DNA of 64,000 nt from Spirochaetia bacterium (lineage in GTDB: Bacteria; Spirochaetota; Spirochaetia; SZUA-6; Bin103): contig OZ241863.1 in the NCBI GenBank assembly GCA_965203055.1, positions 73,313 through 137,312 on the forward strand. The letters are read 5' to 3'. The notes under the pieces were generated by a model that saw nothing but the letters and a program-made list of their open reading frames with translations, did no database searches and was not told the origin of the DNA. This document shows, in pieces, positions 13,039-27,639 of this stretch (the stretch's first letter is position 1; every line of letters starts with the position of its first letter). The translations under genes were made by a program, and so were the position numbers.

Positions 13039-13977
13039 ATGCAACGCTTTCTGATCACCGGCGCCGGCGGCAACCTGGCGCGCCACCTCGTGGCCGAGCT
13101 GCGCGCCCTGGGCAAGGAAACGCTCGGCATCGACCTGACGCCGCCGCCGCCGGCGCAGCGCGCGGGCGCGTGGCGGCAGGCCGACGTCACCGACCGCTCC
13201 GGCATGGCGCGGCTGCTGGCGGAGTTTCGCCCGCAGTGCATCCTGCACATGGCATCGCTGCTGTCGATCTCCTCGGCGGCCGATCCGCGGCGCGCCTGGC
13301 AGGTCAACGCCGGTGCCGCCGTCGAACTGCTGGAGCTCGCCGCGGAGCACGGGGTGCAGCGCTTCTTCTTTCCCAGCACCTCGGCAACCTACGGCGGGCG
13401 GCTGCCCGACCCGCTGCCGGAGGACCACCCCCAGTGGCCGGACAACATCTACGGCGCCACCAAGGTGGCGGTGGAGCGCGTCGGCGCCTGCTTCGCCCTG
13501 AGCCGCGGCCTGGACTTCCGCTCGGTGCGCCTGCCGATCGTGGTATCGCCGTACGCGCCGCCGGCCGCGGTGAGCGCCTACGCCTCCCACCTCTTCACCG
13601 CCGCGGCGCGCGGCGAATCGTTCACCGTTCCGGTGGCGCCCGAGGTGGCGGTGGCGGCGATCTACGTCCGCGACGTGACCCGCGGCATTCTGCGCCTTGT
13701 GGCCGCGGCCGAGGAACGGCTGACGCGGCGCGTCTACAACCTGCACGGGTTTGCCGCCAGCGCCGGGGCCTTGGCGCAGGCCGCGGCGCGCCGGGCGCCG
13801 GGGTTCGCGTATCGCTTCGCGCCGGAGGAACTGGCCACCCGCATCCTCGGCGGGCAGCCATCCGTCTACGTTGACGCCAGCGCCCGCCGCGACTGGGGCT
13901 GGGAACCGCAGTTCGACCTCGCCGCCACCGCCGACGACATGCTCGCCTCCCTCAGCGCCGGCGGCAACGAACTCTGA
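13039..13977 (+). CDS. NAD-dependent epimerase/dehydratase (SDR family)
   Basis: MQRFLITGAGGNLARHLV Rossmann motif (GxxGxxG) and a YGATK catalytic motif (YxxxK). Confidence 0.8.
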   Translation: MQRFLITGAGGNLARHLVAELRALGKETLGIDLTPPPPAQRAGAWRQADVTDRSGMARLLAEFRPQCILHMASLLSISSAADPRRAWQVNAGAAVELLELAAEHGVQRFFFPSTSATYGGRLPDPLPEDHPQWPDNIYGATKVAVERVGACFALSRGLDFRSVRLPIVVSPYAPPAAVSAYASHLFTAAARGESFTVPVAPEVAVAAIYVRDVTRGILRLVAAAEERLTRRVYNLHGFAASAGALAQAAARRAPGFAYRFAPEELATRILGGQPSVYVDASARRDWGWEPQFDLAATADDMLASLSAGGNEL

Positions 13978-15000: not shown

Positions 15001-16749
15001 CTACTCCACGGCGTCGCAGAACACCAGTTCCCAGCCGTGGAACACCAAGGTCAGGCCGGTGAAGCGCACGCCGGGATACTGCCGCGCCAGCCGCTGGTCC
15101 GCCAGATAGCGCCGGAGCTGCGCCGCTGCCTCCGCGGCCGCCGCCGCCACGCCGGCCGCGGCCGCCGACTCGCCGCGCTTGAGGTACTTGAGCTCGATCA
15201 GGTAGCCGTAGCGGAGGTGCGGAAAGGCGGCTACCAGCGGCTCCAGCGCGATGTCCGCGTGCCCCTTGCCCAGCTCCGCCTCCGAGCGGAACTCGTAGAA
15301 GTCGGTCACGCTCAGGTAGGCTGCCAGAAATCCCTGGATCACCTTCTCCCCGGCGATGTAGTCCCGAATCCCCGTCTGCCGCGCAATCGCCTCGCTCAGA
15401 AACTCGAACACCGGCCGCCACTCTCCCTCGTTCGCCATCCGCATCAACAACTGCTCGAAGCGAAACAGGTTCACTGAAAAGACCTTCACGTCGCGGTAGC
15501 CGTCGCGCAGGAAGCCGTACATCAGCCGCTTTACGGTCTGGTTGGGGATCGCCAGCCGAGGCAGGCCGCCAGGCGCACCGCGGATGCTCAACAAGCCGAA
15601 GAAGTGCAGCAGCGAGAGGAAGTTTTCCGGTTCGGCAAGCCGTTCCAGCGGGAAGCCGGGCTGGATGCGGGCGGCTGCCTGCTCCTCGCCAATGACGTCC
15701 CGCAGCAGATCGAAGTTGCCGTTCAACTGCCGGCCGACCACCAGCAGGTGGCGCAGCTTGCCGTAGTCGATGCGCACGTTGGTGTCGATCAGGTACTTGG
15801 GTACCCGGCGGTTGGGGATGGAGTACTTGAGATAATAGAGCACCATGTCGGAGTTGTAGAGGTCGGTCGATGCCTCTTCGGAGAAGCGGTAGCCATTGTA
15901 CCACTCGCCCATGATGCCCAGCGCGGTGTCGGCGTCCTGGTTGAAGACGCCCAGGTCGCGGTACGTCTCGACCAGGCGCCGCACCTCCGCCGCGGTGAAG
16001 CCGACCATCTCGTTGAAGTCCGGTTCCAGGCTGATGTTGGCGCCGATGTTGAAGCCGCTGGTGACGTCGTCCATGGTGACCGGCGACACGCCGGTGATGA
16101 ACAGGCGCTCCAGGCCTCCCCCGATGCGGTCGGCGCCGCCCTTGAGGGCGGCGAAGAAGTTGCGGTAGAAGCCGCCGCCGTGGGTGAAGGAATGGTACGC
16201 CTCGGCGCCGTGCCAGGCCAGCACGGTGTTGGCGAAGTTGTCGTACTCGTCGATCAGCACGTACAGCGGGATGTCGTGGTCGCCCGCGTACCGGAACAGC
16301 GCGGAAAGCCTGGTGGCGATGGACGGCCGGGCGAGGATGTCGCGTACCGCCTCTGCGGGAAACAGGTCAGGGTGCCTCCGCAGCGTCCCCTGGAGTTCGA
16401 CGTCGCAGTAACTTTCGAACTCCCGCTCCAAGGTTTCGAGCTTGTCGTTGACCATAGAGAAGTTGAAGCGCAGGGTGACGTAGCGGCTGCGTTCCTCGGT
16501 CGGGCTGCGCCCGATGTCGGTGCCGGCGTACGTGGCGTCGAAGCGGTCGGCCCAGAAGCGGTCGTAGTAGCTCTCCAGCAGCGCCACCCACAGTGACTTG
16601 CCGAAGCGCCGCGGGCGAATCAGGAAGGCGTAGCGCTCCTGTTCCAGGCGGCGCAGGAAGCGGGTCTTGTCGACGTACAGCCACCGGTTCAGGCGGATGC
16701 GGCTGAATGACGCCTCACCGTAGGGAATGCGCGGATAAGCAGGTACCAT
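15001..16749 (-). CDS. AAA-ATPase (DUF1703-type) with C-terminal PD-(D/E)xK nuclease-like domain
   Basis: 582 aa. Walker A RRFGKSL. C-terminal …GHADIALEP…YLIELKY… has the PD-(D/E)xK pattern. GC is lower than the flanks. Confidence 0.6.
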   Translation of the reverse strand: MVPAYPRIPYGEASFSRIRLNRWLYVDKTRFLRRLEQERYAFLIRPRRFGKSLWVALLESYYDRFWADRFDATYAGTDIGRSPTEERSRYVTLRFNFSMVNDKLETLEREFESYCDVELQGTLRRHPDLFPAEAVRDILARPSIATRLSALFRYAGDHDIPLYVLIDEYDNFANTVLAWHGAEAYHSFTHGGGFYRNFFAALKGGADRIGGGLERLFITGVSPVTMDDVTSGFNIGANISLEPDFNEMVGFTAAEVRRLVETYRDLGVFNQDADTALGIMGEWYNGYRFSEEASTDLYNSDMVLYYLKYSIPNRRVPKYLIDTNVRIDYGKLRHLLVVGRQLNGNFDLLRDVIGEEQAAARIQPGFPLERLAEPENFLSLLHFFGLLSIRGAPGGLPRLAIPNQTVKRLMYGFLRDGYRDVKVFSVNLFRFEQLLMRMANEGEWRPVFEFLSEAIARQTGIRDYIAGEKVIQGFLAAYLSVTDFYEFRSEAELGKGHADIALEPLVAAFPHLRYGYLIELKYLKRGESAAAAGVAAAAAEAAAQLRRYLADQRLARQYPGVRFTGLTLVFHGWELVFCDAVE

Positions 16750-16757
16750 GACTGCGG

Positions 16758-18377
16758 TCAGACCGACGGGGCGACGATCCGGGCGATGGCGGCGCGCATC
16801 CAGCCGGTAGCGGCCAGATCGGCCGGCCGCAGATCGAAGCCGGTCAAGTAGCTGGGCCGATGGGACTTCATGCTCAGAAACTGGTAGAACCGCTCGAAGT
16901 CATCGGCAGCGGTCGCCACCGTAATCTCCTCGATAGCCCGCGCCTTTAGCTCTTTGGAGAACGTCTTGATGATCTCGTAGCTGTTGCGATTCTTCTCCAG
17001 GCTGACCAGCAGGCGGTCCCGCACCGTGCGCATGGTCATGGCGATCGCGCTCAGATAGCGCGACCGGTCGAAACCGGCCGGAGCGAGCTCCGCTACGTTG
17101 TCAGGATGATAGAGATAGTTCTCGATACAATAGTGGCGCAGCACCAGCAAACGCGGACGGTTGCGGCGTATCTCGTCGAGCTCCTCGGTGCCCAGAAAGT
17201 CACGGTCGATCAGGCCGTGAAACCCGTCCGTTCCTGCCGTCTGGATAGAGATCGAATTCTTGTCCTGTGCGGAAATGAACAATGTGTCCTGCAGGCCGAT
17301 CGCATTGTAGAGCAAGGCGTCCTTATTCTCGCACAGGATCAGACGCTTGTTTGGAAACACCTTGAGCGCCGAGCTGCGCGGTACGGCGATATCGAATACG
17401 CGCTCGGTCTTCGGGGCAGGCCGCAGCACCTGCGGCCGATCGAAGTCCAAATCGTCGAAGTCGACGATCGCGGTGTCGCTGCTGGAGCTTCCGTAGTCGA
17501 TGAACCCGAGCGAGTGGCTGGCCGTCCACAGTTGCGAGTGTTCGGGAATCCAGCGCTCCACGATCTCCTGCAGCAGAGCGTACTGCAGCCGGGTATGCAG
17601 GTGCACGTCCAGCTCGTCGATGAAGTAGATGGCATTGGCGAAGTGCTCGCGTCGCACGAACAGGTTGAGCAGGATATTGAAGACCTCCTTCTCGCCGCTG
17701 CTGAGCAGGTCGTAGTGGACCTCGGAATGCCCTTTGCTGAATCGAATGTCCGGCGGCTTTCGATCCAGCGCCGGAATCATACCGGTCAGGCGCAGAGTGG
17801 TGGCGTCACCATTGCCGAATACCCTGGCCATCGCGTCGTTGATCGGCTCGAGGAAGCGCGCCTTCATCTGCTCGGAGTCGAATCGCTCTCCCCACACCTC
17901 GCGCAGGATGCGCGCGGTGACGTGCGAGATGTCGGCCTCGAAGCGAGTGTCCCACTCTATCGACCGCTGCGGGCGGTCGTCGTCCGCCGGCAGGTCGACG
18001 GTGCGGCCATTTCGGTGCCGGAGCTCCGGGACCGTTCGGAGCGAACTTCTGCCGTAGAACGCGTCCTTGAGATTCAGGTTGGGAGGTGTAGGGGCGACCG
18101 ATCCGTTCGTCCTGCGGAGGGATGCTCCACCACCGAACGAGCAGGAGACCGCTACCTCCTCGTCCCAGTCCTTCTTGAAGTAGCTCAAGTAATCGTTACG
18201 ACCGACTCCCTTGGAGGGACCGGAAAGAAACTCGAACGCATCGAATACGGATGACTTTCCGCTCCCGTTCGCGCCGATCAGCAGCACCAGCTTTGGCGCC
18301 GAGGCGCACGCTGACAGATCAATCTCAAGATCGGTAAACCGCTTGAAGTTCGTGAGATGGAGGTTGCTGATGTTCAT
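16758..18377 (-). CDS. Fused ABC-type ATPase (AAA_15/21) plus DUF4435/Toprim-like domain protein (PARIS AriA-AriB-like single polypeptide; OLD-family-like)
   Basis: 539 aa. Walker A GANGSGKSS, ABC signature LSSGEKE, Walker B IYFIDELDVHLH. C-terminal LILCENKDA…GLIDRDF resembles the Toprim/DUF4435 acidic motifs. About 60% GC versus about 70% in the flanks. Confidence 0.55.
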   Translation of the reverse strand: MNISNLHLTNFKRFTDLEIDLSACASAPKLVLLIGANGSGKSSVFDAFEFLSGPSKGVGRNDYLSYFKKDWDEEVAVSCSFGGGASLRRTNGSVAPTPPNLNLKDAFYGRSSLRTVPELRHRNGRTVDLPADDDRPQRSIEWDTRFEADISHVTARILREVWGERFDSEQMKARFLEPINDAMARVFGNGDATTLRLTGMIPALDRKPPDIRFSKGHSEVHYDLLSSGEKEVFNILLNLFVRREHFANAIYFIDELDVHLHTRLQYALLQEIVERWIPEHSQLWTASHSLGFIDYGSSSSDTAIVDFDDLDFDRPQVLRPAPKTERVFDIAVPRSSALKVFPNKRLILCENKDALLYNAIGLQDTLFISAQDKNSISIQTAGTDGFHGLIDRDFLGTEELDEIRRNRPRLLVLRHYCIENYLYHPDNVAELAPAGFDRSRYLSAIAMTMRTVRDRLLVSLEKNRNSYEIIKTFSKELKARAIEEITVATAADDFERFYQFLSMKSHRPSYLTGFDLRPADLAATGWMRAAIARIVAPSV

Positions 18378-19289: not shown

Positions 19290-19311
19290 CCGCCGCGGCG
19301 GCATTCTTCGG

Positions 19312-20673
19312 TCAGTCCACCGCCGGCAGCTCCGCCAACGCCTCGGCGATGCGCTCCTGCGGATACTCGTAGTTGACGAGCTGGCCGTCGAGGAACGAGC
19401 GGTACGCCTGCATGTCGAAGTGCCCGTGGCCGCACAGGTTGAAGGCGATCACCCGCGACTCGCCGGCCTCCTTGCAGCGCAGCGCTTCCTCGATGGCGAC
19501 GTGAACGGCGTGCGCGGGCTCCGGCGCGGGCACGATCCCCTCGGTGCGCGCGAACAGCCGGGCCGCCTCGAACACCGGCACCTGCGGCACGGCGCGCGCT
19601 TCGATCACGCCCAGGTCGTGCAGATGGCAGACCAGCGGCGCCATCCCGTGGTAGCGCAGGCCGCCGGCGTGAATCGGGGCCGGCACGAAGGAATGGCCCA
19701 GCGTGTACATCTTGAGCAGCGGCGTGGTGGCCGCCGCGTCGCCGAAGTCGTAGCGGTACTGTCCGCCGGTCAGGCTGGGCGCCGCCTGCGGCTCGACCGC
19801 CACGAAGCGCGTGGCGCGCGCGCCGCTCAGATTGGCGGGCACGAACGGGAAGATGAACCCGCCGAACGAGGAGCCGCCGCCGGTGCAGCCGACCATGACG
19901 TCGGGGTAGACGCCGGCGCGCTCGAACTGCGCCTGCGCCTCCAGGCCGATCACGGTCTGATGCAACAGCACGTGATTGAGCACCGATCCCAGGCAGTACT
20001 TCTTGCTGCCGCCGCTGGCGGCCGCCGCTTCCACCGCCTCCGAGATGGCGATGCCGAGCGATCCCGGCGAATCGGGCTGCCGCTCCAGCACCTGCCGGCC
20101 GGCGTTGGTGGCGGGCGACGGACTGGCGGTGACGCCGGCGCCGTAGGCCTCCATCATCGAACGGCGGTACGGCTTGCCGTCGTAGGAGACGCGCACCATG
20201 TACACCTCGCAGTCGACGCCCAGGAACGCGCCGGCCATCGCCAGCGCGCTGCCCCACTGTCCGGCGCCGGTCTCGGTGGTGAGCTGCGTCACCCCTTCCT
20301 CGCGGTTGTAGAACGCCTGCGCCACCGCCGTGTTGGGCTTGTGCGAGCCGACCGGCGAGACGCCCTCGTACTTGTAGTAGAGGCGCGCGGGGGTATCGAG
20401 CTCCCGTTCCAGGCGCCGCGCCCGGAACAGCGGCGTCGGGCGCCACAGCCGGTAGATCTCGCGGATCGGCTCCGGAATCGGTATCTCCCGCTCCCGGCTG
20501 ACCTCCTGCTCGATCAGCGCCAGTGCGAACAGCGGCGCCAGGTCATCGGGACCGATCGGGTCCATCCGGCCCGGATGGATCACCGGCGGCAACGGTTCCG
20601 GCAGGTCGGCCTGGATGTTGTACCAGGAGGCGGGAATCTCGGACTGCGGCAGATCGAAGCGAATCGTCTCCAT
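19312..20673 (-). CDS. trpB2: Tryptophan synthase beta-like protein, TrpB2 type
   Basis: 453 aa. PLP lysine context GSHKPN, GGGS loop, and the TrpB2-characteristic long N-terminus. Confidence 0.8.
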
Positions 20674-20689
20674 CGTTTCTCCTCATCGT

Positions 20690-20730
20690 ATTATCATAGC
20701 GCTGCTGCGGGCCATGATACCGCAAGCGAC
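20690..20730 (-). promoter_or_regulatory. Putative promoter plus RBS for trpB2
   Basis: On the minus strand: TATGATAAT (-10-like), then GAGGAG, then ATG within about 20 nt. Confidence 0.25.
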
Positions 20731-20860
20731 CGGAAAGGGAGCGACAGGCACACGTGACGCGCAAGAAGCCGGCCAAGCGCCCGGACAACTACCGGCACCC
20801 GGAAGCCGGGGCGCTGCTGCGCCCGGACATCGGCACCCAGCCGCGCGCGGTATCTGACCC

Positions 20861-21796
20861 GTGATCCGGTCGGTTCGCATCCGCGGCTTCAAGCGGTTCG
20901 GCGAGGTCGAGTTCCGGCTGCCGGGGCACGTCGTGCTGGCCGGGCCCAACGACACCGGCAAGACCACGCTGCTGCAGGCGGTCGCGGCATGGGCGCTCGC
21001 CCTGCGGCGCTGGCGGGAGCTCAACGACTTCAATCGCCGCAACGGCTACCGGCGGGCGCCGCTTGCCCGCCAGGCGTTCGCGGCGGTGCCGGTGCGCAAC
21101 TTCGACCTGCTGTGGACCGACTGCCGCTACCGCGGGCAGATCGAGATCGAGCTGCGTCACGACGCCGGCTGGGCGGTGACGATGGAGTTGATCCCCGACA
21201 GCAGCGAACAGATCTACGTGCGACCGGCGAGTTCCTCGTCCGGCGACCTGCGCCGGATCGATCCGCAGGTGGTGTTCGTGCCGCCGATGACCGGCCTCGG
21301 CACCGACGAACCGGTGCTGCAAGCCCCCAAGATCGAACAGCTTCTCGGCATCGGGCGGCCGGGTGAGGTGCTCCGCAACCTGCTGGCCGAGGCGAACCGC
21401 GACGCGGCGGCATGGGACGCGCTGCAGGCAACGATCGGCAAGCTGTTCGGCTATCGGCTGCTGCCGCCCGACGCCAGCGGCGCGCACATCCGCGCGGAAT
21501 ACACCGTGACCGATCAGGGGCCGCCGTTCGACGTGGCCAGCGCCGGCAGCGGATTCCAACAGGTCCTGATGCTGCTGGCGTTTCTCACCACCCGTCGCCG
21601 CGCCGTCCTGCTGCTGGACGAACCCGACGCCCATCTGCACGTGATCCTGCAAGACGCGATCTACCATGAGTTGCGCAGCGCCGCCGCCCGCCGCGGCTCG
21701 CAGCTCATCGTGGCCACCCATTCGGAAGTGGTCATCAACGCCGTCGAGCCGCGCGAACTCATTCGAGTCGACGCCCCTGGCACTAAGTATCACTAA
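20861..21796 (+). CDS. AAA_21/ABC-like ATPase (defence-associated family), possibly C-terminally truncated
   Basis: Walker A GPNDTGKTT, Walker B LLLDEPDAHLH, H-loop VATHS. The gene has native-like GC, but its last about 8 codons fall in the low-GC DNA that begins near 21780. Confidence 0.55.
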   Translation: MIRSVRIRGFKRFGEVEFRLPGHVVLAGPNDTGKTTLLQAVAAWALALRRWRELNDFNRRNGYRRAPLARQAFAAVPVRNFDLLWTDCRYRGQIEIELRHDAGWAVTMELIPDSSEQIYVRPASSSSGDLRRIDPQVVFVPPMTGLGTDEPVLQAPKIEQLLGIGRPGEVLRNLLAEANRDAAAWDALQATIGKLFGYRLLPPDASGAHIRAEYTVTDQGPPFDVASAGSGFQQVLMLLAFLTTRRRAVLLLDEPDAHLHVILQDAIYHELRSAAARRGSQLIVATHSEVVINAVEPRELIRVDAPGTKYH

Positions 21797-21847
21797 GATT
21801 GTCGGGTATGTAAGTTTGGTCACCCATTATGGGATACATAGAAGCCG

Positions 21848-22732
21848 ATGGACTCACCGAAGACACCGATTGACTTGTTCGGGCGCCCGGCGTACGTCCG
21901 GCCAAACGGGTCGCTGCTCAAGTGGATCGGCAACAAGTATAAGGTCGCAGAGGAGATTACCTCCTATTTCCCGGCCGAGATGCGGGCCTTCTACGACGTG
22001 TTTGTCGGCGGCGGTTCAATCCTGGCCACGGTAGCGCCGGCTCGCGGCGTGGGGTCGGACTCATTCGCGCCCTTGATCGAAATATGGAGCATGATTCGGT
22101 CCGATCCCGCTGTGGTCAAAGGGTGGTACGAGCAGCGCTGGCGGTATGCCATGTCGGGGGACCGCCGGGAGCGGTATGAAGAGATCAAGGCTTCATACAA
22201 CGCCCGGTCGAATGGAGCCGACTTCCTGTATCTCACCCGCGCTTGCTACGGCGGCGTCATCAGGTTCAGGAAGCATGACGGTTATATGTCCACGCCGGTG
22301 GGCATTCATCGGCCCATCGAGCCCCGCAACTTCGCCAAGCGGGTGGACGAATGGCACGTGAGAGTACAAGGCACCGAGTTTATTCGTGCCGATTATGCCG
22401 ACGTAATGGAACGCTGTGAGGCCGGAGATATGGTCTATTGCGACCCTCCGTATACCCACAGTCAAGCTATTTTGTATGGCGCCCAGGACTTCAGCATCGT
22501 TCAGTTGTTCGAGTCGATCGAACGCTGCAAGACGCGAGGTGTTCGCGTCGCCCTGAGCATCGATGGTACCAAGAAGTCCGGGAGTGAGAACTGCCATGTT
22601 CCCATACCGGAAGGGTTGTTCGAGCGGCAGATCCTGGTCAAGACCGGGAGATCGATGCTGCGGCGCTTTCAGATGGATGGCCAGACCCTGGAGTCGGAGG
22701 TCGTGGCGGATCGCCTATTGCTGACGTACTAA
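21848..22732 (+). CDS. Dam-class (D12, alpha-group) DNA N6-adenine methyltransferase
   Basis: KWIGNKY N-terminal motif, FVGGGS (motif I), VYCDPPY (motif IV). About 57% GC. Confidence 0.8.
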   Translation: MDSPKTPIDLFGRPAYVRPNGSLLKWIGNKYKVAEEITSYFPAEMRAFYDVFVGGGSILATVAPARGVGSDSFAPLIEIWSMIRSDPAVVKGWYEQRWRYAMSGDRRERYEEIKASYNARSNGADFLYLTRACYGGVIRFRKHDGYMSTPVGIHRPIEPRNFAKRVDEWHVRVQGTEFIRADYADVMERCEAGDMVYCDPPYTHSQAILYGAQDFSIVQLFESIERCKTRGVRVALSIDGTKKSGSENCHVPIPEGLFERQILVKTGRSMLRRFQMDGQTLESEVVADRLLLTY

Positions 22733-22750
22733 GCTCCTGATGGCGATCAG

Positions 22751-25102
22751 TCAGATGGAGGAAGCTTCAAGGGCATCCCAAAATCGCCGTATCTGTGGCG
22801 GCACGTCGCTTGCTTTGTTTGCTCCTGACATGATCTTTTCCGGCGGAAACTGTCTGCGCAAGAACTCCTTGGCTGGCCCTGAAGCTGATTTTCGATCGAT
22901 CGTCACTATACCGTGCTCAAGGAGAAGCCTGCGTAACCTGCGCCAGCGCCAGGAATCATGAAACAGACGACCCCCATCATCAACGTCGTAGATCGGATTC
23001 GCTCGCTCGTATGCGCGCATCAGCCATTCGAGCAATTCCATTGATCGATCCGACACGTTCCGCCTATCTTGATCTGAATCAGTATCTACCGATGTTCCAC
23101 AATCGGACAGCACACGCATGATCTTATCGGGAATACGTATTGTCTCCTTTCCCTTATCGATCAGACTCTGAACTCCAGCGACATCACGTGGAACCCGGAG
23201 TCCATTCAGTTCCAGCCGGGTGCTCCCGACCTCCACCATTGGCTCCTCGAGCAAGATGTTGTGTGCGTAACACTCTACAAACTTCGTGGCTCCCAAATTC
23301 GTCCGTCGTACTGTAACGCCGTCCAGCGTACAATTTCGCAAAGTGACGCCGGAAAGATCACCGCCGGGAAAGATTACGTTACTTATCTTGAGCCCTGCTA
23401 TGTCAGCCTCGTTGTTCGACCCGAATGCCTTCAACAAGGCCAAGACGATCAGTCCGGCATTTTCCCGAACCTGAGACGCTCGTCGCCATTCGTCACGTCC
23501 CGCCATCGCCAGACGGTTCAGCATTACTTGAAGATCATCAAGAGTTGACAAGGTGTCGTTTGTCATCACCTCTGCTGCAAATCGTTCAGCGACCAACTCG
23601 GGCAACGCAGCGCGACTCAGGATCGCACGCAGGTCTGAATTCGAACCGTACTGCTCGGCAATAACACGGGCAAGGAAGTAGAAGAAATAGACCTCATGCT
23701 CGAACCCGATCGTCTCATGCTTCTCACTGTGGGTGAGAAATGCAAGTGTCGGCATCCGTTCAATGATGATCTGTCTCTCAGACTCGTCAATTTCATCGTG
23801 AAGAAAAAACTCTGCGACTTCCCTTACGGATACACCATCGAGCTCGCGGGTCTCCTGGTTCCACATCTCTTCGGCAAGTTCTCGTACGATCATTTCAAGC
23901 TGATCTTCGGACAACAGCGGTCGCTGTTGGCGATCGAGGATCTTCTCCGCCTGTTCCCGCTTCAGGAAGCTATGGATCAAGGTGTCAAGCAAGTTGCCAT
24001 CTTCAGAAAATTCGCTACCCGTTAGTACCAAATCGACAGTCTTGGCAAAGAACAGCGGCTTATCCATGAGATGACTATCTTGTTGGAACGCCGCGCGGAC
24101 TTTTTTTCGTAACTCATTCTTCCTTTCCGTCGGCAGCGAGTATTGACGCGCGATCTCATTCAGGTAGTCTGACCGGTGGGCGTCGTCCCACGGCGCTATC
24201 TCCACGGGTATGTGCGACCATCGCTGTTTCCCCGTCGCAGCGGCTCGGTCGGCGCGCCGGAGGAACTCTTCCTCGTAATAAGTTGATCTAGCTGAGGTAA
24301 TTATTCTACCGTAGCCATCCAGTTGTTCCAGAAAAGTCGCCAGAGTACTGAAGGCGTCATCATACCCACTGACCCCTAGAAGCTCGTCGAATCCGTCTAT
24401 CACGGGCACCAACAGTCCTACGCGGACCAGGGTTGCAACGGAATGGTAAGTCAGGTTGACCCTCAGATCCTGCAGTTCCGTAGCAAGCGCTTCGTGCAGC
24501 CGCGCCAGGGCGCGGCCTTGCGCATTCACATATAGCAGCAACTTTCCCGTACTGCCGCGCAGGTACCGGTCGGCCTGTTGCCAGACCAGCTCCTGTAGCA
24601 CCCGCGTCTTGCCGGCGCCGGCGCCGCCGGTGGCCATGATGACCTCGGTCACATCAGGCTCGTCATCTTCCATGAGTTCAGTGAGCAACTCCGTGGCGGG
24701 TTGGGGTCCTTTCAGCACCCCGCCCCCATCCGGGCAGCGAGCTCCGGTAGGAACGAATATTTTGTCTTGTCTGGACCGATAGATCATGCGAGCGACATGC
24801 TTCAGATCTGCCATCCGTGTATCCGCAAGAAAAACGGTATACGGCAGGGTCGTACCGTTGGCGCTTGCGGTAACCTCGTGGTCTCGCGAAACCGTAAAAT
24901 TAGCTTCCCGAGGTTCGCCGCGCATTTGCCACTCGGCCTGGAGTCTCCTCCCCGTTGCAGAGATCACGTGGATACCACCCGGGTCTGCAAATGACGTCAG
25001 GTCGCTTTCGATGCGCTCGAGGTCTGCGTCGTATGTCTCGCGCACTTGATCAGCTCCCCAGTTGATGGACGGTAAGCCCCTCGCTGACCAGCGCAGCGTC
25101 AT
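22751..25102 (-). CDS. NACHT/STAND-class NTPase with unknown N-terminal domain and C-terminal pentapeptide repeats
   Basis: 783 aa. Walker A MATGGAGAGKT, Walker B VPVIDGFDEL (NACHT-style hhhhDGxDE), a long helical region, and a C-terminal run of A(D/N)LxG-type pentapeptide repeats (…NVIFPGGDLSGVTLRNCTLDGVTVRRTNLGATKFVEC…). About 52% GC. Confidence 0.7.
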   Translation of the reverse strand: MTLRWSARGLPSINWGADQVRETYDADLERIESDLTSFADPGGIHVISATGRRLQAEWQMRGEPREANFTVSRDHEVTASANGTTLPYTVFLADTRMADLKHVARMIYRSRQDKIFVPTGARCPDGGGVLKGPQPATELLTELMEDDEPDVTEVIMATGGAGAGKTRVLQELVWQQADRYLRGSTGKLLLYVNAQGRALARLHEALATELQDLRVNLTYHSVATLVRVGLLVPVIDGFDELLGVSGYDDAFSTLATFLEQLDGYGRIITSARSTYYEEEFLRRADRAAATGKQRWSHIPVEIAPWDDAHRSDYLNEIARQYSLPTERKNELRKKVRAAFQQDSHLMDKPLFFAKTVDLVLTGSEFSEDGNLLDTLIHSFLKREQAEKILDRQQRPLLSEDQLEMIVRELAEEMWNQETRELDGVSVREVAEFFLHDEIDESERQIIIERMPTLAFLTHSEKHETIGFEHEVYFFYFLARVIAEQYGSNSDLRAILSRAALPELVAERFAAEVMTNDTLSTLDDLQVMLNRLAMAGRDEWRRASQVRENAGLIVLALLKAFGSNNEADIAGLKISNVIFPGGDLSGVTLRNCTLDGVTVRRTNLGATKFVECYAHNILLEEPMVEVGSTRLELNGLRVPRDVAGVQSLIDKGKETIRIPDKIMRVLSDCGTSVDTDSDQDRRNVSDRSMELLEWLMRAYERANPIYDVDDGGRLFHDSWRWRRLRRLLLEHGIVTIDRKSASGPAKEFLRRQFPPEKIMSGANKASDVPPQIRRFWDALEASSI

Positions 25103-25649
25103 TCATCGCTGAACCGACCTCTCTGGTACGCATCCATACGACCGCATCGGGGTGGCCTGCGTGCGCTGAGAGCGCGCCCGGGAGAAGATCGTCATCGTCT
25201 GTCACAATGCCAACACAGGTCCGCGCCTGCGCCGCGGCATATAGCGCATCGCAGGCCAGCATGCCGTCTACCATTTTCTGTACGTAGCGGCGGTCGGTGC
25301 CGCTCCCGGTGGGAGGCCGCATCCGGCGCCGCACCGTGCCTCGCGGGTGAAACATCGGGAATTGGATCATCGAGGTGGCAAGCGCCGGACGGACGATCAG
25401 GCCATTGCGCCGGCCGCGCAGCACCGGCAGCAACTCATGCAGCCATGACGCATGGCGGCTCGGCCATCCCTGCTCAGTGATCCATCCTCCGTACAGCCGG
25501 AGATCGAGCTCGCGCGCGTCCGGGAACAGGGTTGCGAACGCGCGAGACACCTGCTCCACGATGGTCAGAGTAACGAGTTCCAGATCAGCTTTCGAGTTCT
25601 GGTCACGGCGGCGAAAATTGTACCAGTCGACAAGAGCCAGCCCTTGCAT
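25050..25649 (-). CDS. NYN/YacP-like (PIN-fold) nuclease domain protein
   Basis: 199 aa. N-terminal LALVDWYNF (the VDGYN-type motif of NYN/YacP) and a distal acidic cluster VGIVTDDDDLLPG. Overlaps the start of the STAND gene by 53 nt, giving the operon order NYN then STAND. Confidence 0.45.
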   Translation of the reverse strand: MQGLALVDWYNFRRRDQNSKADLELVTLTIVEQVSRAFATLFPDARELDLRLYGGWITEQGWPSRHASWLHELLPVLRGRRNGLIVRPALATSMIQFPMFHPRGTVRRRMRPPTGSGTDRRYVQKMVDGMLACDALYAAAQARTCVGIVTDDDDLLPGALSAHAGHPDAVVWMRTREVGSAMNDAALVSEGLTVHQLGS

Positions 25650-25793
25650 GAGTTACTACCCAACCCAATATACGACCTGGAGCGGGGGGTCAGCTTTGGG
25701 AAGCGGCCGGCCCGCCCGGTAGTGGTACGCGACGGGCCGGCTGCCGGTAATGGTGACGGAGGCGCTCCGGTTGCCGTTAGCCCACCCGCCTGA

Positions 25794-25877
25794 TGCCCGG
25801 AAGAGGACTCGAACCTCCACAGCCGTACGGCCACCAGACCCTGAACCTGGCGTGTCTACCAATTTCACCATCCGGGC
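25794..25877 (-). tRNA. tRNA-Leu (anticodon CAG)
   Basis: The reverse complement gives GCCCGGATGGTGAAATTGGTAGACACGCCAGGTTCAGGGTCTGGTGGCCGTACGGCTGTGGAGGTTCGAGTCCTCTTCCGGGCA: a long-arm class II tRNA with anticodon loop CTCAGGG. Its 3' end faces the low-GC islet. Confidence 0.85.
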
Positions 25878-25971
25878 AGGATGACGGTAACAACCTACCC
25901 CTGCCCGGCACTCCTGTCAAGACCTTGAGACGAGACGAGACGAGATCTGCGCCGCGCGGCGGGAGCGCCGG

Positions 25972-27639
25972 TCAGGCGGGGGCGGCGGCCCCCTGGCCGA
26001 CGGTATCGGTCGGGCCGGTGAAGCCGGGACCGCCGGCCGCCACGTAGCCGCGGCTGGCGCCGGAGCGGTCCGGGCTCACCCAGAAGGAGTACAGCGCCGC
26101 GTCGCGCAGGTGGAAGCGCAGCCGCACCGGCCGGCCCGCGAGTTCCGCCAGGCCGCCGGCATTGCCCCAGGTGACCGCCTGCCGGGTGGCATCGCCGGTC
26201 ACCGGCGCGCAGCGCTCGCGTGAGCAATGGCCGAGCGGGTTGCCGGCGGCGTCCAGCGCCTCCACCCGCAGCTCGCCGCCCGCCGCGGCGGCGTTGACGA
26301 ACAGGTGGCGGCCGCTGAAGCGCAGCGGGCGGGTGGTCAACGTGCCGCCGTCGGCGCCGGCCGCATGGGACACGAAGCCGTCGCGGCGCAGGGTCGCCAG
26401 GCCGGTGCTGCCGCCGGCGTACATGTGCGCGCCGAGCTTCGGCGAGACGCCGGAGAAGGCGCCGAAGTAGAGGTAGAGCCGGTCGCCGACGATCAGACAG
26501 CACCCGCCGCAGGAGTGGATGTAGTCGCGGTTCCAGTCGCCCGGCTGGTGGGTGCCGGCCACGATCGGCAGGCGGTCGCGGCGGTCGAAGTGGAACCCGT
26601 CCCGGCTGTAGCCCACCAGCAGCTCGGTGATCTTGGGAAACCCGCCGGCCTCGCAGATCTCGTTGGGCGGCCCGCGGTGGATCATGAAGAAACCCAGCAT
26701 GAGACTCTCGTAGCCCACGGCATCGATGTTGTAGAGCTGGGTCGGGTAACCGTGTTCCGGGGCCGGCGGGTCCAGATCGTCGGCGCCGGCCCAGTGGGCG
26801 ACTTGCTCCGGTTCCCAGGCGGCGCCGGCGAACAGGTCCGGGTGCTCGTGGTAGCCGCGCAGGCGCCCGACCGCCGGAGCGCTGGTGCGGATGCTGTATA
26901 CCCAGCGCTTGCGGAACGGGTTGTAGAAGATGGTGGTATTGTCGCCGCCGCGGCCGGTGGCGGCGCGTTCGCGCCAGTGGATGCCGTCCGCCGAGGAATA
27001 GACGTGGCCGCCCACCCACTCGTTGGCGGTGCCGGGGCCGCCCAGCTCGCCGTAGCGGAAGCCGGCGCCGCGCCGGCGGTGGTAGGCGAACATCTTGAAG
27101 CGTTCCGCGGCGCGCGCGGCCTCCTGATCGAGCCATACTCCGACGCCGTCCCGCTGATAGCTGGGCCGTAGCGGCAGCACCCGGTTGGTACCCGGCTCCA
27201 CGTCCAACTCCGGGCGCTCCCAATGCACGCCGTCGCGGCTGGTGGCCAACGCCACTCCGTCGAACCAGCCGGCGTGGTACCACAGCTTGAACAGCCCGTC
27301 CGCCGGATCGTAGAAGGCGCCGTCCTTGAATGGGCAGGCCGTGGGACACAGCCCGAAGTTCATTTCCAACGGGGTCTCCGGCACCAGCACCGGGCTTGCC
27401 TCGTGCAGCACCGGGGTATGGAACTCGCGCCGCAGGGAACTCTCGGCGATCAGAAACTCATCCACCAGGAGTTGCCGCCCCACGTCGATGGGGATCACCG
27501 CCGGCGGCCGCTCCAGGTAGGGGACCGGCCCCGGCTCCCGCGCCTCGCGCGCCAGCCCGCGCGGCGGCCACTCCGCAGGTTGCTCGATCCCGTTGTAGCT
27601 CACCGCGCCTGTTTCTCCCGTGCCTTCGCCGTTGCCCAT
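25972..27639 (-). CDS. Beta-propeller glycoside hydrolase-like protein (GH43/GH32/GH130-clan-like)
   Basis: 555 aa with repeated W/Y…D…G blades (WYHAGWF, YSSADGIHW, VGYSRDGFHF). The assignment is tentative. Confidence 0.3.
   Translation of the reverse strand: MGNGEGTGETGAVSYNGIEQPAEWPPRGLAREAREPGPVPYLERPPAVIPIDVGRQLLVDEFLIAESSLRREFHTPVLHEASPVLVPETPLEMNFGLCPTACPFKDGAFYDPADGLFKLWYHAGWFDGVALATSRDGVHWERPELDVEPGTNRVLPLRPSYQRDGVGVWLDQEAARAAERFKMFAYHRRRGAGFRYGELGGPGTANEWVGGHVYSSADGIHWRERAATGRGGDNTTIFYNPFRKRWVYSIRTSAPAVGRLRGYHEHPDLFAGAAWEPEQVAHWAGADDLDPPAPEHGYPTQLYNIDAVGYESLMLGFFMIHRGPPNEICEAGGFPKITELLVGYSRDGFHFDRRDRLPIVAGTHQPGDWNRDYIHSCGGCCLIVGDRLYLYFGAFSGVSPKLGAHMYAGGSTGLATLRRDGFVSHAAGADGGTLTTRPLRFSGRHLFVNAAAAGGELRVEALDAAGNPLGHCSRERCAPVTGDATRQAVTWGNAGGLAELAGRPVRLRFHLRDAALYSFWVSPDRSGASRGYVAAGGPGFTGPTDTVGQGAAAPA

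Follow-up and report, generated by a model that had tools for sequence, protein, structure and literature searches.

What do two adjoining genes on the (-) strand of a Spirochaetia bacterium genome encode, and do their products act together? The genes lie in a segment of contig OZ241863.1 (the window, meaning the whole stretch of 64,000 nt that was analyzed), in which an earlier note, made from the letters alone, had described a small protein with NYN nuclease motifs upstream of a large NACHT NTPase with pentapeptide repeats. Both open reading frames (ORFs) are present, one at 25050..25649 (199 amino acids, aa) and the other at 22751..25102 (783 aa as the longest ORF). They are not chance ORFs, each of the two proteins having hundreds of homologues. 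We find that NYN-NACHT is a real, well-supported and conserved two-gene module, and analogy with known systems makes a role in defence plausible. The reading we favor, by a modest preference over doubt, is that of an NLR-like sensor that recruits or licenses a separate predicted NYN nuclease, the two constituting a putative antiviral module.

The linkage of the two genes was surveyed with a degenerate-pattern scan at one genome per species, which yielded 30 loci whose downstream NACHT gene was checked by tblastn. A NACHT gene was located directly downstream of the NYN gene and on the same strand in 29/30 loci, the sole exception (L026) being a truncated NYN remnant. The loci span at least eight lineages, namely Acidobacteriota (Vicinamibacterales, Bryobacterales, Thermoanaerobaculia), Binatia, Latescibacterota, Spirochaetia, Gammaproteobacteria, Alphaproteobacteria (Methylorubrum, Lichenihabitans), Planctomycetota and Longimicrobium. 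Even damaged copies tend to keep traces of the arrangement: L020 and L032 are deletion remnants with pieces of both genes, and L029 and L030 are frameshifted. Among the matches listed, the most divergent NYN relatives (P0379, P0388 and P0389) are each followed by a NACHT-type gene, 761-765 aa long where the whole gene is on the contig. A paralogous module (L007 15473..18465, (-)) resides in the same genome region as an orthologous pair and encodes a NACHT-pentapeptide protein of 755 aa that is 27% identical, preceded by a 237-aa NYN-like protein (hhalign probability 99.4%, E 1e-21). Gene order is thus kept in pairs at ~27-30% identity, and the co-occurrence of NYN and STAND genes, on which the interpretation of the locus depends, holds almost without exception. 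Since the divergent relatives and the 27%-identical paralogue are also paired, the two-gene unit is ancient and acts as a single module.

Some loci carry further features of the pair. Two tandem NYN and NACHT pairs, arranged head to tail, occupy L021 10001..15911 and share 42%/39-44% and 39%/40% identity with the window proteins. ARAGORN places a tRNA-Leu(CAG) at 13496..13582 of that locus, on the opposite strand and inside the second NYN gene, which is possibly a false positive. The 237-aa NYN-like protein of L007 has a cysteine-rich insert of ~50 residues, a possible metal site. A 971-aa ORF (P0214; L039 10001..12916) was considered as a natural NYN-NACHT fusion. Its junction, with unrelated residues in place of the final NYN strand and the original Met of NACHT still present, fits a frameshift or a long-read indel, and the ORF was dropped as evidence.

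The first gene of the pair (25050..25649, (-)) encodes a stand-alone NYN/PIN-like predicted nuclease of 199 aa. Standard hidden Markov model (HMM) annotation would miss this assignment, the window protein going unmatched in Pfam, NCBIfam and PADLOC at a threshold as loose as E<=1; judged from conserved residues and a structural model, the protein is nonetheless an NYN protein. The two motifs first noticed, LALVDWYNF and IVTDDDDLL, are both present. Motif 1 (LALVDWYN, aa 4-11, 25617..25640) has D8 and N11 at the end of strand 1, motif 2 (QKMVDGMLACDA, aa 124-135, 25245..25280) contains D128 and D134, and motif 3 (DDDD, aa 151-154, 25188..25199) contains D152 and D154, all on the (-) strand. Conservation was scored in an alignment of 55 sequences (A1) and in one of 72 sequences (A3) that reaches down to ~26% identity to the window protein. 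Residues D8, D128, D134 and D152 are invariant in both (sequences ~26-47% identical to the window protein); D154 and N11 show no variation in A1 and are conserved in at least 90% of A3. In the family the motifs read LALVDxxN, QKMVDxMxxxDA and DDDD, colinear with the NYN consensus, the first of which we take to correspond to the DxxN start of NYN/Regnase-type domains.

The AF2 model of the protein (predicted local distance difference test score, pLDDT, 90.8) has a PIN-like fold of three layers, alpha/beta/alpha. Divergent members bridge the family to Pfam: PF01936 is matched by 53/72 of these NYN relatives at E<=0.1, over profile positions ~56-122 that cover motifs 2 and 3, and two of them (P0375, 28.5 bits; P0361, 26.2 bits) exceed its gathering cutoff of 24.2. 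Searching the PDB sequences with a profile of the NYN family returned a single match of 13.6 bits, which was spurious, and since that search gave nothing credible the NYN link rests on structure and on the divergent members. The PIN-like model, the four invariant aspartates and the bridge to PF01936 through relatives bear out the NYN or PIN fold with acidic residues that had been proposed for the upstream protein. With its catalytic-type residues conserved, acidic residues of the kind that bind metal at the C-terminal ends of the core strands in NYN domains, it is a catalytically plausible predicted nuclease, presumably metal-dependent.

The family shares with PF01936 NYN domains (LabA-like; MARF1, VPA0982; Anantharaman and Aravind 2006) the fold and the DxxN, xxD...D and DxD motifs in the same order. 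It differs from them in falling below Pfam detection in the case of the window protein, in occurring upstream of a NACHT gene, and in two features of its own, an invariant RxYGGW motif and a ~65-residue insert rich in conserved arginines (R78, R80, R87 and R107 invariant, R81 and R103 conserved in at least 90%). The composition of this insert suggests nucleic-acid binding. The family is large. An indexed search recovered homologues in 168 clusters at 90% identity, and an exhaustive profile search recovered 931 clusters (50% identity) at E<=1e-3, 362 of them at E<=1e-10; the best 150 clusters are all stand-alone proteins of ~190 aa. This amounts to a large NYN subfamily that is invisible to Pfam at the sequence level.

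The second gene (22751..25045, (-), with the start revised below) encodes a NACHT-clade STAND NTPase of 764 aa, and residue numbers refer to this version of the protein. The motifs MATGGAGAGKT and VPVIDGFDEL were correctly located in the 783-aa ORF. In a family alignment of 54 sequences, G143, G145, K146 and T147 of the Walker A motif GGAGAGKT are invariant, as are D217, G218, F219, D220 and E221 of the NACHT signature in VPVIDGFDE. A D[GAS]hDE signature after Walker B defines NACHT (Kibby et al., bioRxiv 10.1101/2022.07.19.500537). With Pfam NACHT (PF05729) the window protein reaches 25.3-25.4 bits, against a gathering cutoff of 26.7, and the model is matched by 54/54 family members at E<=0.01 (best 1.2e-9), two of which carry the NCBI name 'NACHT domain-containing protein'. 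In the AlphaFold model of the protein (pLDDT 82.7), 389-446 residues align with the NACHT modules of NLRP3 and NOD2, and the architecture of the nucleotide-binding oligomerization domain (NOD), composed of nucleotide-binding, helical and winged-helix modules, is closer to NACHT NLRs than to other STANDs.

The protein can be divided into six parts. An N-terminal domain (aa 1-68, 24842..25045), with one helix, a five-stranded beta-sheet and no recognizable family, has a mean identity of 52% to the window protein and is followed by a pre-NTPase segment (aa 69-130) delimited on the AlphaFold model. The P-loop NTPase core (aa 131-287, 24185..24655) holds Walker A at 24605-24628 and Walker B with the NACHT signature at 24383-24412, and the helical and winged-helix modules of the NOD, delimited on the same model, extend over aa 288-545 (23411..24184). 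A short pentapeptide-repeat beta-helix of ~12-16 pentads and ~85-90 aa (aa ~546-637, 23135..23410) then precedes a winged-helix-like C-terminal alpha/beta domain of ~125 aa (aa 638-764, 22754..23134) that belongs to no Pfam family; all these features are on the (-) strand. The Pentapeptide model scores 15.2 bits on the window protein, against a cutoff of 20.2. The assignment of the repeats comes from the family, in which Pentapeptide_4 matches 34/54 members (best 7e-8) and Pentapeptide 17/54, and from the right-handed quadrilateral beta-helix of the model (PF00805/PF13599 being the HMMs in question). The pentapeptide solenoid of the earlier note is thus present as a short beta-helix, and it is not C-terminal as that note had it, the winged-helix-like domain coming after it. 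The statement that the first ~150 aa of the 783-aa ORF lack a recognizable family stands: no Pfam family covers aa 1-130 in any of the 54 members, and none covers aa 638-764.

Mean identity to the window protein is highest in the NTPase core (76%) and lies at 47-57% in all other regions. No hypervariable sensor region was found anywhere along the protein, only the core standing out, and that by its higher conservation. The repeats had been taken as the sensor. They are not necessarily so, and the C-terminal winged-helix-like domain, which could be a sensor or a tether, is at least as good a candidate. Cysteines C572 and C592 of the beta-helix and C649 at the start of the C-terminal domain are invariant, and C686 is nearly invariant in the family and replaced by Y in the window protein (window ~22988-23332 for the four positions). 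A metal or redox site is one possible role for them, plain core packing another.

How closely are the two genes joined? The ORFs as first delimited overlap by 53 nt. A GTG codon at 25045-25043 lies 4 nt past the NYN stop codon (TGA, 25052-25050), and a GGGGAG Shine-Dalgarno sequence (25059-25054) ends 8 nt upstream of it, so that the whole junction occupies 25043..25059 on the (-) strand. Homologues of the NACHT protein are ~761-768 aa long, and their N-termini align with V20 of the 783-aa ORF. Junctions between called genes in related loci range from -4 to +4 nt, with gaps of 4 nt (L001, L037, L038, L040) and 2 nt (L033) and overlaps of 1 nt (L034) and 4 nt (L041, L042, the P0379 contig). Given the homologue lengths, the N-terminal alignment, the Shine-Dalgarno sequence and these junctions, the 53-nt overlap is most likely an artefact of choosing the longest ORF, and the true start is probably GTG 25045, giving 764 aa. 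A long overlap is thus unlikely; the tight juxtaposition and coupling of the NYN and NACHT genes is real and conserved. A scan of 22500-26000 for promoters and terminators gave counts no higher than shuffled expectation and was uninformative.

Both genes are compositionally atypical, less uniformly than first claimed. The window has a guanine-cytosine (GC) content of 69%, and GC at third codon positions (GC3) is ~90% in host genes. The corresponding values are 63.7% and 72% for the NYN gene and 54.7% and 60% for the NACHT gene. A figure of ~52% GC had been given for both; the values are indeed below that of the window, and ~52% applies only to the 3' half of the NACHT gene.

The surroundings of the pair, sampled in seven independent neighborhoods, are suggestive of an association with defence islands. 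At one related locus the pair comes directly after type I hsdR/M/S genes and near AbiEii and HigB/HTH (helix-turn-helix) genes. At another it comes directly after an N6_N4 methylase and a ResIII gene (type III-like); AAA_21 ATPases, HicB and a transposase are in the vicinity. DDE transposases adjoin the pair in a further related locus. In the window, a tRNA-Leu(CAG) predicted by ARAGORN (25792..25878, (-)) lies 142 nt upstream of the NYN gene, as context outside the module. This tRNA-Leu site is also where the pair resides in a close relative (L038); what follows the NACHT gene is not the same in the two, being a Dam-type methyltransferase, an AAA_21 ATPase and a TrpB-like gene in the window (19295-22750) and a DDE transposase and a hypothetical gene in L038. 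A search for direct repeats of att type matching the 3' end of the tRNA-Leu found only short repeats at chance level, and no integrase was found; for this reason we claim a variable site at the tRNA and no mobile element.

How might the pair work? The mechanism we favor is built by analogy with Avs, bNACHT and animal NLRs. At rest, the ADP-bound NACHT protein would be auto-inhibited. An infection cue would bind the C-terminal region, through the beta-helix and/or the winged-helix domain, and would lead to nucleotide exchange and oligomerization. The N-terminal domains (aa 1-68), clustered in this way, would recruit or release the NYN protein and so render it active. The nuclease would then cut RNA, or possibly DNA flaps or structured DNA, and phage replication would stop or the cell would die (abortive infection). 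The N-terminal domain is proposed as the docking site for the NYN protein; in other bNACHTs this position is taken by fused effectors or adaptors. The NYN protein is cast as effector, and not as co-sensor or toxin, from the effector position in other STAND systems. A bolder formulation, which we advance tentatively and with more doubt than confidence, is that of a prokaryotic 'inflammasome-like' design in which the ~70-aa N-terminus of the NACHT protein would be an adaptor that recruits and activates a free-standing NYN ribonuclease in trans, in a family of at least 360 clusters (50% identity) that spans many phyla and is missing from current defence catalogues.

Several observations weigh against a sensor coupled to a nuclease effector. 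The beta-helix and the C-terminal domain, at 52% and 47% identity versus 51-57% in the rest, lack a hypervariable sensor signature. No genuine NYN-NACHT fusion, which would have put NYN where effectors usually sit, was found. PADLOC v2 has no model that matches the window proteins or their family, and in L039 and L040 the pair lies among housekeeping-like genes.

Among the alternatives, the one that survives best, though we consider it unlikely, is that NYN is a constitutively active toxin which the resting NACHT protein sequesters stoichiometrically and sets free on sensing or when the NACHT protein is degraded, in an abortive infection resembling toxin-antitoxin (TA) systems. A stoichiometric complex would accord with the tight coupling and with an order in which the small gene always precedes the large one, TA genes are frequent neighbors of the pair, and other nuclease-NTPase pairs in defence behave comparably: in Hachiman HamAB, the nuclease is reported to be restrained until triggered. 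However, known antitoxins do not resemble a STAND of 764 aa whose Walker A and B motifs are intact, and what is left in the remnant loci L020 and L032 is pieces of both genes, not a lone antitoxin.

Less likely again is a co-sensor role, in which NYN would bind or trim phage nucleic acid, the product or complex would activate NACHT, and the N- or C-terminal domain of the NACHT protein would execute the response. The two uncharacterized domains of that protein (aa 1-68 and 638-764) are possible effectors or DNA binders, and the arginine-rich insert and YGGW of NYN suggest specific nucleic-acid binding. Against this, both domains are small and show no recognized catalytic-type conserved residues, the full acidic set of NYN is invariant, and in characterized STAND systems the nuclease is the output (PMC13581612; Kibby et al.). 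The least probable alternative, a non-immune STAND regulator like MalT or AfsR whose C-terminal winged helix would bind DNA while the RNase served housekeeping or stress RNA turnover, is at odds with the patchy spread over unrelated phyla, the atypical GC, the variable flank at the tRNA site, the restriction-modification, Abi and TA genes and transposases that directly adjoin the pair, the tandem duplication in L021 and the decayed copies (L020, L026, L030, L032), all of which give the pair the character of accessory conflict genes.

If the favored reading of a sensor with a separate nuclease is true, a widespread clade with a separate and coupled nuclease would offer a tractable model for the activation of an effector in trans by a STAND oligomer, the principle on which inflammasomes work. 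The pair would also fill a missing model in defence catalogues for little-studied phyla such as Acidobacteriota, Binatia and Latescibacterota.

Is the arrangement new? In PADLOC-DB v2.0.0 no family matched the NYN protein at E<=1, and the best match of the NACHT protein was mad8 (E 0.016, 12.7 bits). In NCBIfam the NACHT protein matched only DS8_antiphage, with 15.1 bits against a cutoff of 790. The literature searched contained no paper combining NACHT or STAND with an NYN partner, NYN is absent as a bNACHT effector from the effector list of Kibby et al. and from Aravind-group papers on conflict systems, and it is absent from the part of Table S1 of Kibby et al. that was searched. A STAND survey published in Nature in 2026 (PMC13581612) may well include the NYN-NACHT clade. 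The earlier assertion that this split architecture is undescribed thus holds for PADLOC v2 and for the papers found, and its novelty is smaller than was implied, since split effectors are not unprecedented among STAND systems. What looks new, in the sources searched, is the NYN effector together with its constant encoding as a separate upstream gene and the small N-terminal domain.

The NACHT protein itself belongs to a known kind, given that Kibby et al. list both pentapeptide sensors and 'hybrid' C-termini. Proteins of the bNACHT group are antiphage, and pentapeptide repeats are among their listed classes of C-terminal sensors (Kibby et al., bioRxiv 10.1101/2022.07.19.500537; Cell 2023). The window protein resembles them in its NACHT NTPase with D[GAS]hDE and its NLR-like NOD fold, its repeats correspond to the 'antigen-receptor type' class, and its extra C-terminal domain fits the 'hybrid' class. 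It differs in that the enzymatic effectors surveyed by Kibby et al. are fused domains, mostly N-terminal and with NYN not among them, whereas here the N-terminus is a domain of ~70 aa that matches no known family and the nuclease has an upstream gene of its own.

Among AVAST systems, some types consist of several genes. The pair shares with Avs/AVAST systems (Gao et al. 2020, 2022) the logic of sensor, NTPase and effector; it differs in having no PADLOC Avs match, an NTPase of the NACHT clade, a separately encoded NYN, and a candidate sensor made of a short beta-helix and a winged-helix-like domain rather than tetratricopeptide repeats. In Avs7, ligand-induced oligomerization assembles the nuclease effector Cap4 (PMC13581612). 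The bacterial NLR-like CARD-protease-gasdermin systems and eukaryotic inflammasomes (PMC10312443) are conceptually alike in that a STAND sensor activates a separate effector polypeptide recruited via an N-terminal adaptor. In neither window protein did the searches detect a CARD, a Death-like or an EAD domain, and the adaptor role of the N-terminal domain is putative. Among NYN proteins, HEC-09 has a MARF1-like NYN domain, is a proposed defence RNase and occurs in Hachiman loci (Payne et al., bioRxiv 10.1101/2024.01.29.577857). Unlike the pair, it is a stand-alone HTH-NYN protein, encoded by a single gene that lacks an NTPase partner, and it did not protect in the assays of Payne et al. Note that the absence of any PADLOC-DB match to the window NYN extends to HEC-09 only insofar as the presence of a HEC-09 model in that database can be judged from HEC-01A matches.

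Other observations concern the genes around the pair. Compared with L038, the pair (window 25652..22751 vs L038 9998..12869) is less conserved, at 80% nucleotide identity, than the syntenic housekeeping flanks, at 84-89%, a difference that fits faster evolution or allelic replacement of the module. Downstream, window 20861..22732 (+) encodes a 311-aa AAA_21 ATPase (NsnB 3.4e-23; AriA, MADS3-like) and then the Dam-type N6-adenine methyltransferase (PADLOC MTase_II 2e-69; TIGR00571 114.0 vs cutoff 114.85), which is convergent with the NACHT gene and 18 nt from its end. No restriction nuclease partner of this methyltransferase was identified in the window. Farther on, window 16758..18377 (-) encodes a 539-aa ABC/OLD-type ATPase that is conserved in L038 and matches PADLOC AriAB (fused PARIS ATPase-Toprim, 3.4e-20), AriA, AbiLi and PtuA. 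A 582-aa ORF beside it (15001..16749, (-)) has no PADLOC match and is missing from L038. The region of the 539-aa ATPase, ~5 kb from the pair, is a possible second defence locus.

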